A stretch of 64,000 bases of DNA from a virus: IMG/VR virus record IMGVR_UViG_3300029953_000001; one strand, 5' to 3'. Position numbers and translations under genes: made by a program. The notes beneath the pieces were generated by a model, which worked only from the letters and a program-made list of their open reading frames with translations, was not told the DNA's origin and searched no databases. This document shows positions 8,974-27,756 of this stretch, piece after piece. Position 1 is the first letter of the stretch. Each line of letters opens with the position of its first letter.

Positions 8974-9394
8974 GGATGCCAAGGCACAGGTCGTCCTTGA
9001 CGGCATCACCACGGCCTTGATGGCCGGGACGACTACCATTGTCCCCGGTACCTACATCATGTTCCGACGTGAACCCGCCATGAAGAAAGGCATCACTGAA
9101 ATTTACTCGGTAAACTCCTCCGTAGCGATTCCAGTTGAAGGTGCTGGATGGGTGGTGGGAAGCGAGGTCATCGGGTACATCAAATGGTTTGGTCGCTGGA
9201 GGAAGTATGGCTTCTTCCCCAAGCCCGATACAATTTACGAAGAGACCTGTCTCCGAGAGATAGCACACTTTGGTCAGATGTTGACGCATGTACACCGACT
9301 ACTCAAAGCACAAGAGAGAGTCAAAGCGAAGTATGGAGACGGCCCCATCGACTTATGGCCGAAGGATTTATTGGAGGCACCACATGGCAGCTAA
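8963..9394 (+). CDS. hypothetical protein (143 aa)
   Basis: ORF 8900-9394 with the start moved to ATG 8963, which overlaps the previous stop. Confidence 0.45.
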   Translation: MKSKDAKAQVVLDGITTALMAGTTTIVPGTYIMFRREPAMKKGITEIYSVNSSVAIPVEGAGWVVGSEVIGYIKWFGRWRKYGFFPKPDTIYEETCLREIAHFGQMLTHVHRLLKAQERVKAKYGDGPIDLWPKDLLEAPHGS

Positions 9395-9632
9395 GCAAGC
9401 AGTCGTAACCTTTGCAAAGGGCGACCCGAAGAAGCACTCAGTCAAGATGGAGGCTATCTCGGCCACGCTGGTTGGTGCCGAAGCGGGTACCGTTCTCGTT
9501 GCCGATAAACTTGGCGACATCTACGTCAGCCGTCACATCATGGACGCACTGGGTCTGAAGGATTCAGCAACCATTCAGGTTACATTCCAAGGGGTCAATA
9601 AGGCGACCGCTGGGGATAGCGAACTCATATGA
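9384..9632 (+). CDS. hypothetical protein (82 aa)
   Basis: GGAGG SD followed by ATG 9384. Confidence 0.5.
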   Translation: MAAKQAVVTFAKGDPKKHSVKMEAISATLVGAEAGTVLVADKLGDIYVSRHIMDALGLKDSATIQVTFQGVNKATAGDSELI

Positions 9633-9958
9633 TGTTCTGGAACTCATTCAATCGACCACCCAAGGAAGGCGAGAGGATTCTCGCCCTGACGCACGACCGT
9701 GGGACGATTCACATTGCCACGTACTCGGCCTCAGTTCCTTGGACTGACTGCATCGGATGGATGCCAGCCGGGGAACTCCTCGACGCTGAAACCGGCGATG
9801 ACCCGAACTTGGAGTGCCTTTGTCCACCCAAGCCCATCCCATCCCCGCTGACACAACGGAGCTTCACCCGTGAGCACGTAGACTGGCTGGCCGTGGCTAT
9901 GGGGCTCACCCTCGCCATGCTCATCCGGTTCAACATCATTCATCAAATCAAGTTCTAG
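9629..9958 (+). CDS. hypothetical protein (109 aa)
   Basis: ORF coupled to the previous gene by an ATGA overlap. Confidence 0.5.
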   Translation: MMFWNSFNRPPKEGERILALTHDRGTIHIATYSASVPWTDCIGWMPAGELLDAETGDDPNLECLCPPKPIPSPLTQRSFTREHVDWLAVAMGLTLAMLIRFNIIHQIKF

Positions 9959-10395: not shown

Positions 10396-10449
10396 AAAAA
10401 TTCCCAAAATTACTGTTCAAAACGGTCGTGAGTCCCGTATACTGTGGGT
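10392..10449 (+). promoter_or_regulatory. promoter of the conserved family: UP tract aaaaaattcccaaaatta + TGTTCAAAAC box + TATACT; ATG 6 nt downstream (leaderless)
   Basis: ctgaaaaaattcccaaaattacTGTTCAAAACggtcgtgagtcccgTATACTgtgggtATG. Confidence 0.55.
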
Positions 10450-11258: not shown

Positions 11259-11467
11259 TGGCTGGAGCCTTAGTCAACTCGGTCGTTGAAGAAATGTCGT
11301 GGAGTTCCTCTAGGGAGAGCCCCGCCAGCATGGAACGTGAAGCTGAGCGGGACTTTCGACGCTCCAAAACTCCTCAGGAGTTGCACGACCGTCAGTACGA
11401 GTGGCGTGTCATCGAGGCTGTCTACCTCAAGCGTCTCACAGAGAGGAACCGTGATGCCAAAGCGTAA
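11258..11467 (+). CDS. hypothetical protein (69 aa)
   Basis: ORF with an ATGA overlap. Confidence 0.4.
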   Translation: MAGALVNSVVEEMSWSSSRESPASMEREAERDFRRSKTPQELHDRQYEWRVIEAVYLKRLTERNRDAKA

Positions 11468-11837
11468 GTACATCTCCGCCGAGGAACCAGCCAAGATTCG
11501 CATCGTCATCGGTGCCCGGTACACCGTCACCGACTACAACAGCCAGCCTCTCCCCGGCTACGTGAAGCCTGTACGGTGGGAGCCGTCCATGTCGATGTAC
11601 AAGTGTGAGAACGACCTTGGCGGTCAGGTGTGGGTCAAGCGTGGCTGCTTCGTCGCTGGTCTCAGTTCCAAGCCCAAGCCTTCTACTCACTGGTCGCTGT
11701 CGTATCCCAAGAGCGTCCGGCCCAAGCCAGTGCCGAAGTCATTCTGCGGACAGGGCAAGGCCCTCACGCCCGACAAGACCAAGGTCACGTGCCTGAAGTG
11801 CAAGAGCCTGATGAAGCTGCACACCGCCCCGGCGTGA
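11454..11837 (+). CDS. hypothetical basic protein (127 aa)
   Basis: ORF 11286-11837 with the start trimmed to ATG 11454. Lys/Pro-rich. Confidence 0.4.
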   Translation: MPKRKYISAEEPAKIRIVIGARYTVTDYNSQPLPGYVKPVRWEPSMSMYKCENDLGGQVWVKRGCFVAGLSSKPKPSTHWSLSYPKSVRPKPVPKSFCGQGKALTPDKTKVTCLKCKSLMKLHTAPA

Positions 11838-11923
11838 AGTAAGCAGTGGGGGAGCATCGTTCCTCATCACGCAGAACTTCTACCTCGCTATGGCCGAGTT
11901 AGATTTCTTGTCAAGGTCGTCAT

Positions 11924-11970
11924 GGAATATACATATTCCATAAAGCCGTTTAAAGAAATATGTATATTCC
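11924..11970. promoter_or_regulatory. AT-rich hyphenated palindrome GGAATATACATATTCC-N15-GAAATATGTATATTCC; candidate operator or protein-binding site in a 225-bp non-coding gap
   Basis: Two 16-bp palindromic half-sites that together form a roughly 47-bp inverted repeat. The element is conspicuously AT-rich against a GC-rich background. Confidence 0.45.
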
Positions 11971-12029
11971 TGCCGATGTGGTCAAGTGTGATGGTGGGAC
12001 TTCATTCGGTGAAGACCAATTTTTCCACT

Positions 12030-12064
12030 ATGCGTGCAAAGTCCTTTGGGGTATACTGGCCTAA
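12030..12064 (+). promoter_or_regulatory. promoter: TATACT -10 located 7 nt before the GTG start at 12065 (leaderless)
   Basis: aatttttccactatgcgtgcaaagtcctttggggTATACTggcctaaGTG. Confidence 0.35.
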
Positions 12065-12340
12065 GTGATAACCTTTCTCCGCAAGCTAGTTGGTCGCAAA
12101 CCAGCACCACCGGCTCCTATCAAATGGGGGCCGGAACTAGACTCGGCTGTTCTTAATCGAGGACAGTGCCCGGACTGCGGTATTGAATCAACGTGGAAGA
12201 CCGAAACTTGCGTGTTCAGCCAGACTACAATCGAGTGCGACCCATGCGGTAGTCGATACGCTGTGATGCCGTGCTTCCCACCTTACACCCGTGCCCACTT
12301 CGTGGGCTACAACCGCATCAAGAGGGACAAGCCACTATGA
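12065..12340 (+). CDS. hypothetical Cys-rich (Zn-ribbon-like) protein, GTG start
   Basis: CPDCG...CDPCG pattern. Confidence 0.4.
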   Translation: MITFLRKLVGRKPAPPAPIKWGPELDSAVLNRGQCPDCGIESTWKTETCVFSQTTIECDPCGSRYAVMPCFPPYTRAHFVGYNRIKRDKPL

Positions 12341-12642
12341 GCGGAAACAGTGAACTGAAGACCATTCTGATTTACGACCAGCTTGACGCTGAACTGAAGT
12401 TCTTCGTACTTGAGGGGAACTACACCCACCTGAACAAGGTGTACATGAACTCGGTGCTGCCTGATGGTGCTACCAAGAAGGCTCAGAAGGCTCACGACAA
12501 GTTGCAGGAAGAGTTGGAGAAGCTCATCTACGGGGACGGCGGGGACATCCTCCTCCCGTACACGACGGAGTTCCCGTTGGATGTAATTGACGACGGCCTG
12601 TTCGGTTCTGTTGCCGTCATCGTCGCAGGATTCCTGCCATAA
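12337..12642 (+). CDS. hypothetical protein (101 aa)
   Basis: ORF with an ATGA overlap. Confidence 0.45.
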   Translation: MSGNSELKTILIYDQLDAELKFFVLEGNYTHLNKVYMNSVLPDGATKKAQKAHDKLQEELEKLIYGDGGDILLPYTTEFPLDVIDDGLFGSVAVIVAGFLP

Positions 12643-12657
12643 CTGAAAGGTAAAGCC

Positions 12658-12855
12658 ATGGGACTGTCAACGTATGTGCAAGCCTTCCGTCCCCCGGACG
12701 CGAAGTGGAAGAAGATGAAGCAAGCCTACGACGCCTGTGAGGCCGCTGGCGTCCCCGTCCCGGAAGAGGTCGATGATTTCTTCAACAACGAACCGCCTGA
12801 CCCTGCCGGTGTCAGTGGAACCGTGGTGGGGAGGAAACCGAATGACAGACCGTGA
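12658..12855 (+). CDS. hypothetical protein (65 aa)
   Basis: ORF. Confidence 0.35.
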   Translation: MGLSTYVQAFRPPDAKWKKMKQAYDACEAAGVPVPEEVDDFFNNEPPDPAGVSGTVVGRKPNDRP

Positions 12856-13567
12856 ACGTATCCTTCTCAATATTGCTTCCATGCTCGCTCAAGAAGTCGC
12901 TACCCTCCAGCGGTTACCGGCGGTTCAGCAATACATGGCAAGCCAGTATTCTCTGAGCCATATTGCGATTGAAGAACCCGGTTTTGAGCGGCCCAAGTAC
13001 AACAAGGGCGACCTCGTTCTCTGTCAGTCCAGTGTCGGTCGCAACGAAAATCCGTTCGTCCTAGCCTTTGTCGAAGCGAATGGGTGCAAGAATGATCCTA
13101 GCGGACTACTTCTCCGCGCCATCGGAACAAACGATTTGTGTGACTACGGAAACGAGCGGTTTGCCCGGATCACCGGCATCCCAGAACGCATGTTGTGGGA
13201 GGGGGAAAAGCAGCAATTCGCCAACAAACTTTACAAGACCCTAAGGAAGATGGACACCTACGTTCATCGGTTTCGCGGTCTCAGTTTCCCAGAAGATGGT
13301 CAGGCTGACGTTACCTTTGGTGAGATTTTTGGTGGACTCTCGAAGCACTCGAAACCGTACACTCTGCGAGTCGCCTACACGCCCAAGACGACACTGAAAA
13401 GCATCCGCCAGCAACTGGAGGCGCAAGGATTTGGCGTACGGAAATTCGAAGAGGACGATGGGACCTACGACGGACAATTCCACAATCCGCAAGCGATCAC
13501 TCGCGAGAGTCTGATTGGCGAGTTGACAGCCGCCGGAATTGAGCTGAAACCAGAGGTGGCATCGTGA
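12842..13567 (+). CDS. hypothetical protein (241 aa)
   Basis: ORF 12737-13567 with the start trimmed to ATG 12842. Confidence 0.45.
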   Translation: MTDRERILLNIASMLAQEVATLQRLPAVQQYMASQYSLSHIAIEEPGFERPKYNKGDLVLCQSSVGRNENPFVLAFVEANGCKNDPSGLLLRAIGTNDLCDYGNERFARITGIPERMLWEGEKQQFANKLYKTLRKMDTYVHRFRGLSFPEDGQADVTFGEIFGGLSKHSKPYTLRVAYTPKTTLKSIRQQLEAQGFGVRKFEEDDGTYDGQFHNPQAITRESLIGELTAAGIELKPEVAS

Positions 13568-13613
13568 GCGAGTGGACGTGGATGATTCTGTCGGATTCCG
13601 ATGAAGTGCCGAT

Positions 13614-14126
13614 GTGTACGCGAATGGCAATGGAAGAGTCCAATGGGTGGCGGGTCGTGTCCATTTGCCGCACATCTTACGAAAGTCCGACCGCATACTT
13701 TCAGGTATTTATGAGGCGCGAGAAGACCCCATGACTGACCACCCAATGAGTCAGAAGATGAAGGACTGCCTCGCCACGATTGCGGATGCCAAGAATGGCG
13801 AGATGAGCGGATGGACTGTGGCGACTTGGCTAAACAAACGCAGGCATCCTGAAGGTGTCCGCGAATCGCTGAGGGCGTTGACGAACCGAGGTCTGATCGT
13901 GATGCGTCCGATGGACGACCCAAATGACGAGTTCCGTAAGCGGTTTCCAGACCGTCTGAAGGCGATGTACTCAATTGCGAAAGGAACCGAAGCCGGTAAC
14001 CCCATCCCAGCTGAGGTTGGTCGTCTCATCGCTGGCACCACTAACGGTGCGGCTCATTACACGCCCCTGCGACCGGGTGACCTCCTCAGTAAAAAATTCC
14101 AAAATAAGTGTTCAGAACGATGGTGA
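13614..14126 (+). CDS. hypothetical protein, possibly a winged-helix DNA-binding protein
   Basis: ORF whose start is uncertain (alternative in-frame ATG at 13729). The segment WTVATWLNKRRHPEGVRESLRALTNRGLIV looks like an HTH. Confidence 0.35.
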   Translation: MYANGNGRVQWVAGRVHLPHILRKSDRILSGIYEAREDPMTDHPMSQKMKDCLATIADAKNGEMSGWTVATWLNKRRHPEGVRESLRALTNRGLIVMRPMDDPNDEFRKRFPDRLKAMYSIAKGTEAGNPIPAEVGRLIAGTTNGAAHYTPLRPGDLLSKKFQNKCSERW

Positions 14127-16647: not shown

Positions 16648-17457
16648 ATGATGCAGGGTATCCAAGCCGAACTTCTCACCGAGACGACCGAGCTTCATTT
16701 CCAGCGGATGCTGACCAACCCGGACTACGGGTATCAGGAGAAGCACAACGGTCATCGGCTGATGATTGCCAAGCAGGACGGTCAGCTTTTCTGGTTCAAC
16801 CGTGAGGGCGAGAAGTCAAGCAAGGCCCTCCCCATTCAGGTTCGCCACGCCCTTCTGTCCCACCCCCTCGACACATTCGTAATCGACGGCGAACTGGTCA
16901 AGACCACGTTCTTCGTCTTCGATGCTCTCATCCTTGGCGATGAGGTTATCACCAACGACGTTTACGAGTACCGTGAAGCCCGGTACCATCAGGAGTTCGA
17001 CAACCACTCCAAGAACCTCATCACGGTCAAGACTGCCCGTACCGCTGCGGAGAAGAAAGCCCTGTGGGAGCAGGTACTGGCCGCGAAGGGCGAGGGCATC
17101 GTCTCGAAGAATCTACGGAAGTCCTATCGTACTGGTAGGGCTGAGCAACATTTTAAATTGAAGTTCTGGAAGATGGCGGATGCGTTCGTCATCGGCCCCA
17201 GCCCTGAGGGCAAGGATAGCGTTGAGATTGGCATGGTGAACTCGAAGGGTCAAGTCCACCGCATCTCTGGTTGCTCTCTGCGGAACAAGTTCAACCCGGC
17301 TCCGGGTCAGGTCATCGAAGTCCGCTTCCTCTATGCGACTCAGGAACGCCACATCGTTCAGCCTACACTCCTGCACCTTCGCAATGACAAGCGTGCGGCT
17401 GACTGCCATCTGTCGCAACTCGAACCTTACATCAACAAGAACTGGGCTACCAAATGA
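16648..17457 (+). CDS. lig: small ATP-dependent ligase (nucleotidyltransferase superfamily; DNA-ligase-like motifs)
   Basis: Motif I YGYQEKHNGHR (a KxDGxR variant with N in place of D), motif III FVIDGELV, motif IV EGIVSK and motif V HFKLKFWK occur in the canonical order and spacing of minimal T7/Chlorella-virus-size ligases. Confidence 0.65.
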   Translation: MMQGIQAELLTETTELHFQRMLTNPDYGYQEKHNGHRLMIAKQDGQLFWFNREGEKSSKALPIQVRHALLSHPLDTFVIDGELVKTTFFVFDALILGDEVITNDVYEYREARYHQEFDNHSKNLITVKTARTAAEKKALWEQVLAAKGEGIVSKNLRKSYRTGRAEQHFKLKFWKMADAFVIGPSPEGKDSVEIGMVNSKGQVHRISGCSLRNKFNPAPGQVIEVRFLYATQERHIVQPTLLHLRNDKRAADCHLSQLEPYINKNWATK

Positions 17458-27725: not shown

Positions 27726-27756
27726 GGGTACCCACTAGGCCCCTGTTTTCCACAAT

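Follow-up and report, generated by a model that had tools for sequence, protein, structure and literature searches.

The DNA analysed in this study is a 64-kb stretch of phage genome (IMG/VR record IMGVR_UViG_3300029953_000001), referred to here as the window, and its G+C content of 54.4% makes it only moderately GC-rich, less so than the initial annotation implied. The plus strand carries genes for a Ku homologue, an ATP-dependent DNA ligase (16648–17457), an RNA ligase, a PARP-like enzyme and a CCA-adding enzyme together with many ORFans, while the minus strand between 38.7 and 61.7 kb encodes giant polyvalent proteins with ART, GNAT and ParB_N domains. The phage additionally encodes a 5′-nucleotidase. 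The Ku homologue comprises 318 aa in full and adjoins an rIIB-like gene (window 11–712; sequence L188, 8790–9746 and 7392–8594). In the GenBank phage collection, nothing similar to the window was found at the DNA level. A 127-aa protein of the window is present, in identical form, on many metagenome contigs, the longest of which has 431,749 bp, and the source is an uncultured giant phage with contigs of up to 431 kb. Several independent metagenome contigs begin at 9353–9798 (region 9350–9800), and this clustering of starts suggests a strain-variable region that breaks assemblies. Contig L029 shows a substitution/indel patch at 11297–11328 and a 55-bp deletion (13084–13138) that splits a 241-aa gene; 33 homologues of this gene were found, located in non-syntenic contexts where comparable repeats are absent. 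At 8270–8530, a G+C-rich gap of ∼260 bp without a called gene separates genes of the plus strand. Its many short complementary runs of GC give it a structured look, and Rfam shows no match for it at the gathering score.

The genes of the rightward, early-type array abut or overlap each other, with promoters tucked against the preceding stop codon. The exception is a spacer at 11838–12064, which is the only long non-coding one in this tightly packed array. It measures 227 bp (corrected from the 225 bp given initially) and the codon-usage scores of all its frames are non-coding. On its left ends the basic orphan gene for the 127-aa protein (11454–11837, plus strand), the last gene of an operon that runs from the promoter at 10437; homologues of its product beyond the phage itself were not found. 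On its right begins, at 12065, a gene for a 91-aa zinc-ribbon protein, the first of another operon. The spacer harbours a 47-bp element (11924–11970) that reads GGAATATACATATTCC-ataaagccgtttaaa-GAAATATGTATATTCC, and both this sequence and its arrangement as a larger inverted repeat are confirmed as first described. Box O1 (11924–11939; GGAATATACATATTCC) is a perfect 7+2+7 palindrome, GGAATAT-AC-ATATTCC, and extends to 18 bp when the outer T...A pair is included. It is followed by an AT-rich linker of 15 bp with weak self-complementarity (11940–11954; ATAAAGCCGTTTAAA) and by box O2 (11955–11970; GAAATATGTATATTCC), which starts 31 bp past the start of O1 and reads GAAATAT-GT-ATATTCC. Of the two 16-bp palindromes originally proposed, therefore, only O1 is perfect, O2 having one arm mismatch (GAAATAT compared to GGAATAT); with its complementary outer A...T pair, O2 also spans 18 bp. 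There are thus two levels of symmetry, each box being a dyad and the two boxes being inverted copies of one another. O2 differs from the reverse complement of O1 by a single mismatch and from O1 as a direct repeat by three, the direct match being worse because the central dinucleotide is flipped (AC compared to GT). The centre-to-centre distance of 31 bp corresponds to three helical turns and places both boxes on the same face of the helix.

A lone palindrome of this kind is unremarkable in the window, where 30 perfect 7+N+7 palindromes with spacers of 0–4 nt are observed and roughly 20 expected. The pairing of O1 with O2 is non-random: none of 300 dinucleotide shuffles produced a perfect 7+2+7 palindrome accompanied by a second copy (≤3 mismatches, within 100 bp). 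Of only five occurrences of the half-site heptamer in 64 kb, three fall in the element, which is also the longest local inverted repeat of high identity (86%) in the window, with arms of 21 nt. The striking AT-richness noted at the outset holds up. The 47-mer at 11922–11968 is the most AT-rich of the window (76.6% AT, compared to a mean of 45.6%), and the element itself has 72% AT. Symmetry continues outward, more loosely, into the flanks TTGTCAAGGTCGTCAT and TTGACCACATCGGCA, which, compared in the inward direction, agree at 10 of 15 positions; an additional base adjoins O1. The full symmetric unit is therefore the imperfect inverted repeat of 78 bp at 11908–11985.

Both boxes coincide with sequences that resemble σ70-type promoters by consensus match. 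A candidate on the plus strand (TTGTCA-18-CATATT, 11908–11937) has its −10 hexamer within O1 and another on the minus strand (TTGACC-17-CATATT, 11957–11985) has it within O2, so that the two mirror each other face to face, with predicted starts ∼6 bp apart; both are 9/12 consensus matches, which are frequent by chance. Further downstream in the spacer, a small hairpin on the plus strand (CUUCA-UUCGG-UGAAG, then AAUUUUU; 11996–12024) is weakly terminator-like, and its folding z-score of −1.4 is statistically not notable.

The promoters of the array are of a highly regular design, consisting of an A/T-rich tract, TGTTCAGAAC, N13, GTATACT, usually N6, and an ATG or GTG start codon. The plus strand of the window has 12 copies of GTATACT and the minus strand none, the expectation being ∼3 per strand. 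The long consensus is common to 10 of the 12 sites (7029, 10437, 14132, 16635, 27796, 28139, 30080, 33954, 34584 and 35347), and the upstream box is lacking at the remaining two, 12051 and 29763. A generic promoter scan reads the family sites as TTCAGA-16-TATACT, that is, as σ70-type. Given the start codon 6 nt past the −10 element, the mRNAs should be leaderless; together with Ku, the leaderless genes hint, short of proof, at a host from a group in which leaderless mRNAs are abundant. The spacer does not hold a member of the family, its best score against the 52-nt family profile being −12.3 compared to 31–64 for the ten members, and its likeness to them is confined to the A/T-rich, ATTCC-A-rich part, with the −10 element absent. 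A related motif, A(A/T)ATTCC-AAAAT, is present in the upstream A/T-rich tract of family promoters. O1 plus linker (ATATTCCATAAAG) resembles this motif, which might be chance or may reflect a common recognition element. Apart from the boxes, the half-site ATATTCC is found near a promoter only once, at 28101–28107, within the A/T-rich tract that precedes the 28139 promoter. At the promoter at 27796, an operator-like element of tandem or dyad repeats, CACAATTTGTTG-CACAAATTGTTG (27745–27785, palindromes at 27754 and 27761), stands where the A/T-rich tract would be and runs up to the −35-type box; its presence suggests that site-specific regulators act on this genome.

The gene to the right of the spacer (12065–12340, plus strand) is presumed to be leaderless, as the initial annotation had it, and the evidence obtained here supports this. 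Its GTG start stands 7 nt past a GTATACT element (12051–12057) that belongs with the GTATACT-N6-ATG arrangement used elsewhere in the phage, and the hexamer TATACT (12052–12057) lies 81 nt past O2, close to the 80 nt stated earlier. Having neither the TGTTCAGAAC box nor the A/T-rich tract, the predicted promoter at 12051 is of a −10-only type. The stop codon of the ORF overlaps the start of the next gene (ATGA). None of the metagenome gene callers called it, and its codon-usage score is borderline (0.017, where known coding windows score 0.415 ± 0.128). In an exhaustive search, the 91-aa protein turned up seven small homologues with 28–53% identity and E-values as low as 1e-13, all aligned from residue 1 and with the invariant pattern LN..CPD...EC..CGS...G.NR, a zinc ribbon, in common. 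These homologues identify the ORF as a real gene and a member of a small conserved family. At least one real gene is therefore missed systematically by gene callers, because its promoter–start layout implies a leaderless mRNA. A sequence search of the PDB with the 91-aa protein returned only non-significant zinc-ribbon matches (best E = 0.1), and similarity to NrdR was not detectable.

One syntenic relative was found, IMGVR_UViG_3300029913_000009 (98 kb), whose genes come in the same order as in the window: the C-terminus of an 861-aa protein, a homologue of a 197-aa protein (66% identity), the zinc-ribbon protein (42%), a homologue of a 176-aa protein, a TPR protein and the ligase (68%). Its promoters are of the same style (A/T-rich tract, CTAGCCAAAAC, N13, GTATACT, N6, ATG), with a box that differs from TGTTCAGAAC. 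In the relative, the zinc-ribbon gene (3001–3261 of sequence L183) directly follows the upstream stop codon in the arrangement TAG-TATAAT-gaggt-ATG, which is again −10-only and leaderless. Non-coding spacer and palindromes are both absent at the corresponding position, a box-like sequence is found nowhere in 16.6 kb of the relative, and upstream of its zinc-ribbon gene lie small genes that bear no relation to their counterparts in the window. From this it follows that the element is lineage-specific, which makes an origin or another core role unlikely. The −10-only promoter type of the zinc-ribbon gene, found there without boxes, is independent of the element. Judged from this comparison, the element sits in a variable slot, together with orphan genes. 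Within the phage itself, the boxes are identical in all 11 other contigs examined, and the population thus gives no informative variation; the sole difference in the spacer is a single-nucleotide polymorphism outside the boxes (11904 T>G, one contig).

The genome-wide search for further copies that had been suggested came out negative: none was found at ≤3 mismatches in the 64-kb window and none in ∼19 kb of additional phage flanks, ∼83 kb being covered in total. In IMG/VR, the exact 16-mer has 17 single, unrelated matches. The paired-box pattern has no match in IMG/VR and none in 185,579 species genomes (GTDB), and in metagenomes it was found only in the phage itself (L051) and in AT-rich repeats such as CAGGGAATATACATATTCCCTG. 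Repeats of this latter kind were judged to be coincidental, and their contigs look eukaryotic. Tandem 22-bp palindromes CAGGGAATAT(AC/GT)ATATTCCCTG with a period of ∼29 bp contain the O1 16-mer; their contigs (L038, L041, L042, L046, L047 and L058) are low in GC and have low-complexity ORFs and a retroelement integrase-like ORF. A single box has at least 120 matches in genomes, scattered, none of them paired and no taxon enriched, which argues against a host regulon and against a MITE. The terminal repeat of a longer mobile element, an alternative named in the initial annotation, was rejected for MITE and IS alike, for which multiple copies and a target-site duplication would be expected, the element being single-copy in ∼83 kb and its paired pattern having no match in IMG/VR or the 185,579 species genomes. 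To our knowledge, the boxes match neither parS, dif/Xer, invertase/resolvase, LexA, ArgR, Fur or CRP sites, nor the σ54 −24/−12 elements, N4-type hairpin promoters or φKZ-type early promoters. A promoter motif should recur, and that the boxes do not is a further point against such a motif. Screening of ∼50 window proteins against Pfam and PHROGs revealed no HTH or regulator family. The candidate small HTH protein put forward initially (gene at 13614–14126; the 131-aa candidate) gave no family match and nothing in the PDB sequence search, and its AlphaFold model (pLDDT 44) was too poor to use.

Our tentative reading is that the element is a candidate operator-type site, at which two dimers or one tetramer would bind and either repress transcription or form a roadblock, and we assign to this reading a probability somewhat below one half (∼0.45). 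The reading is favoured because two copies of a dyad site explain, by one assumption, both levels of symmetry and the three-turn spacing. It draws support from the 31-bp spacing, which is that of proven tetramer sites, the NrdR boxes (PMC13584703), from the location in non-coding DNA at the sole place where abutting genes leave 227 bp, from the two σ70-like −10 hexamers inside the boxes, and from the further operator-like element at the 27796 promoter. Measured against the generic operator for a cooperative pair of dimers, the symmetry and phasing are as they should be (dyads of 14–20 bp, integral turns), whereas overlap with a promoter is represented only by the 9/12 σ70-like matches and a cognate regulator was not recognised in the window. 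Among the roles listed in the initial annotation, that of an operator therefore fits the anatomy best, the dyad boxes and their three-turn phasing above all; the binding protein to go with it was not found among the ∼50 window proteins. Further points against it are the flipped central dinucleotide and the weak symmetry of the flanks, both expected of a hairpin or an inverted duplication, and a conservation record that lends no support, the boxes being identical in the 11 other phage contigs and absent from the syntenic relative.

Mechanistically, the two 16–18 bp dyad boxes on one helix face would be taken by two dimers or by a dimer of dimers of a sequence-specific DNA-binding protein, which may be encoded elsewhere in the phage or by the host. 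The bound protein would block RNA polymerase at the spacer, the effect being most likely negative. Such a block could stop read-through from the upstream operon, whose promoter at 10437 is operator-less. Alternatively or additionally, it could occlude the weak σ70-like promoters that have their −10 hexamers inside the boxes. The accessory genes at 12065–14126 would then depend on their own −10-only promoter. With box centres ∼133 bp (O1) and ∼102 bp (O2) upstream of the presumed start at 12065, the boxes at about −102 and −133 are too far away for simple occlusion of the 12051 promoter, or for a simple operator of it.

Tandem operators of the lambda, 434 and P22 type and the inverted-repeat operators of Aca proteins at phage accessory-gene promoters cover core elements of a strong promoter, and their repressor is encoded by an adjacent gene. 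The boxes share with these phage operators, whose sites are bound by interacting dimers, the adjacent dyads of 14–20 bp, the intergenic location and the proximity to accessory or early genes. They are distinct in that the only well-supported promoter lies at a distance of ∼100 bp, those that overlap the boxes are weak consensus matches and a gene for a repressor was not recognised.

The element could instead act in the transcript, as an RNA hairpin at the 3′ end of the upstream operon that serves as a stabiliser, an RNase III-type processing site or a site of pausing or termination. We consider this unlikely, but to be taken seriously. The 86-nt RNA segment folds into one long AU-rich hairpin of −27.4 kcal/mol (z = −5.4, reached by 0 of 200 shuffles) and the 47-nt core into one of −15.4 kcal/mol. 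The inverted-repeat fit (one mismatch) beats the direct-repeat fit (three mismatches), the flipped centre included, and the complementarity between O1 and O2 extends into the flanks. Its place just 3′ of the operon's last gene would suit such a function, and given that canonical terminators are not enriched in the genome, another 3′-end device could be needed. Yet the hairpin leaves the inner palindromy of each arm unexplained. A hairpin needs no palindromic arms, whereas paired dyad sites yield a large inverted repeat automatically, and the operator-type site is favoured for this reason. Furthermore, the stem is AU-rich and followed by UGCCGAUG instead of a U-tract; as the only hairpin of its kind in 64 kb, it is not a general operon-end device; and the syntenic relative manages without it. 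Rfam 15 gives no match in the window at the gathering score, and a permissive scan of 11700–12450 returned mir-1 (E = 0.86) as the sole sub-threshold match. Compared with RNase III hairpins and 3′ stem-loops such as the T7 R sites, the element is similar in being an imperfect hairpin of ∼20 bp in an intergenic spacer between genes of the same strand, with no U-tract, and differs in its palindromic arms, its single instance in 64 kb and an extremely AU-rich stem. A canonical intrinsic (Rho-independent) terminator was rejected, since the stem is AU-rich, UGCCGAUG stands in place of the U-tract and a terminator scan did not flag the site. The transcription boundary suggested initially thus survives as an RNA hairpin or a protein roadblock and falls as an intrinsic terminator.

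Somewhat less likely again is that the element has little or no function, a near-neutral local inverted duplication or recombination scar having arrived with the orphan accessory genes in the variable slot. The lineage specificity of the element would be accounted for, as the relative has other small genes and no spacer at this position, and so would be the orphan status of the neighbouring 127-aa gene. The imperfect symmetry of the flanks is as after duplication and then decay, and neither a second copy nor a cognate protein was found. Against this, the boxes, with 31 of 32 positions preserved, have fared far better than the flanks, with 10 of 15; their inner dyads are intact and the boxes' spacing is an exact number of helical turns. 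In addition, it is rare for a phage genome packed this tightly to retain 227 bp of DNA that serves no purpose.

That the boxes might serve as an upstream activator site, with a dimer pair at about −102/−133 stimulating the leaderless 12051 promoter by bending or looping of the DNA, appears improbable to us. The two sites do share one helix face, and the 12051 promoter, having GTATACT and a correctly spaced start and lacking TGTTCAGAAC and the A/T tract, may need help. However, the homologous gene of the relative has the same −10-only promoter (TATAAT-N5-ATG) with no upstream sites, and activation from beyond −100 without a proximal site is unusual for σ70-type promoters.

More speculative, and rated slightly lower, is the idea that 11908–11985 constitutes a compact switch or insulator, in which two mutually exclusive, face-to-face promoters would be placed under the control of one tetrameric protein in NrdR-like geometry. 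The tetramer would possibly be a phage zinc-ribbon protein, for example the adjacent 91-aa family member. If true, this would present a new pair of transcription factor and operator in giant phages.

The origin-like element of the initial annotation is disfavoured, and a replication origin or DNA-structural role as AT-rich unwinding DNA or a cruciform seems to us distinctly improbable. The element is the most AT-rich spot of the window, its single-stranded DNA folds with −10.6 kcal/mol (z = −6.8), and long arms with a short loop favour extrusion of a cruciform. There are only two boxes, however, with no array of iterons and just 47 bp of AT-rich DNA, the GC skew is unchanged at the element, a gene for a replication initiator was not found nearby and the relative has no non-coding DNA at the corresponding position. 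By these features the element does not fit the definition of an iteron-type origin (at least three iterons, an AT-rich unwinding region, an adjacent initiator and a position conserved among relatives).

The closest architectural match to the element is the site of NrdR, the host ribonucleotide-reductase repressor, and in geometry the likeness is complete. NrdR sites comprise two partially palindromic 16-bp boxes separated by a non-conserved linker of 15–16 bp, rarely 26–27 bp, and both boxes are needed for binding of the tetramer on one helix face (PMC13584703). The layout of 16-15-16 within 47 bp is identical here, with palindromic boxes, a linker of 15 bp, AT-rich centres, and A6 and T11 in both boxes (PMC13584703). 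The conserved bases of NrdR boxes are C4, A6, A8, T9, T11 and G13, and mutation of C4 or G13 abolishes or severely reduces binding (PMC13584703). The corresponding bases are A4, A6, A8, C9, T11 and T13 in O1 and A4, A6, G8, T9, T11 and T13 in O2, so that each box has A and T where the critical C4 and G13 would stand, and a C-N8/9-G register is not found in or around the boxes. NrdR sites overlap the promoters of nrd and nrdR operons, whereas here the 91-aa zinc-ribbon gene and ORFans lie downstream. An NrdR-like protein with zinc ribbon and ATP-cone was not detected among the window proteins, nor did those scanned give a ribonucleotide reductase or ATP-cone match, and none is encoded downstream. 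Binding by the host NrdR, though suggested by geometry, is therefore largely refuted by the sequence and highly improbable.

Lastly, our study has implications for how regulation in this phage might be approached. Tandem dyad boxes in a phage intergenic region are a familiar kind of element; the box sequence, by the searches made here, is a new one, known to date from this single uncultured phage. If a protein binds, the boxes would serve as a defined bait of 47 bp with which to isolate a sequence-specific regulator, and would mark a control point between two operons of accessory genes, in a phage whose early-type genes are almost all ORFans. Arguably more useful than the element itself are the leaderless promoter family and the zinc-ribbon family missed by gene callers, with its conserved −10-only promoters.
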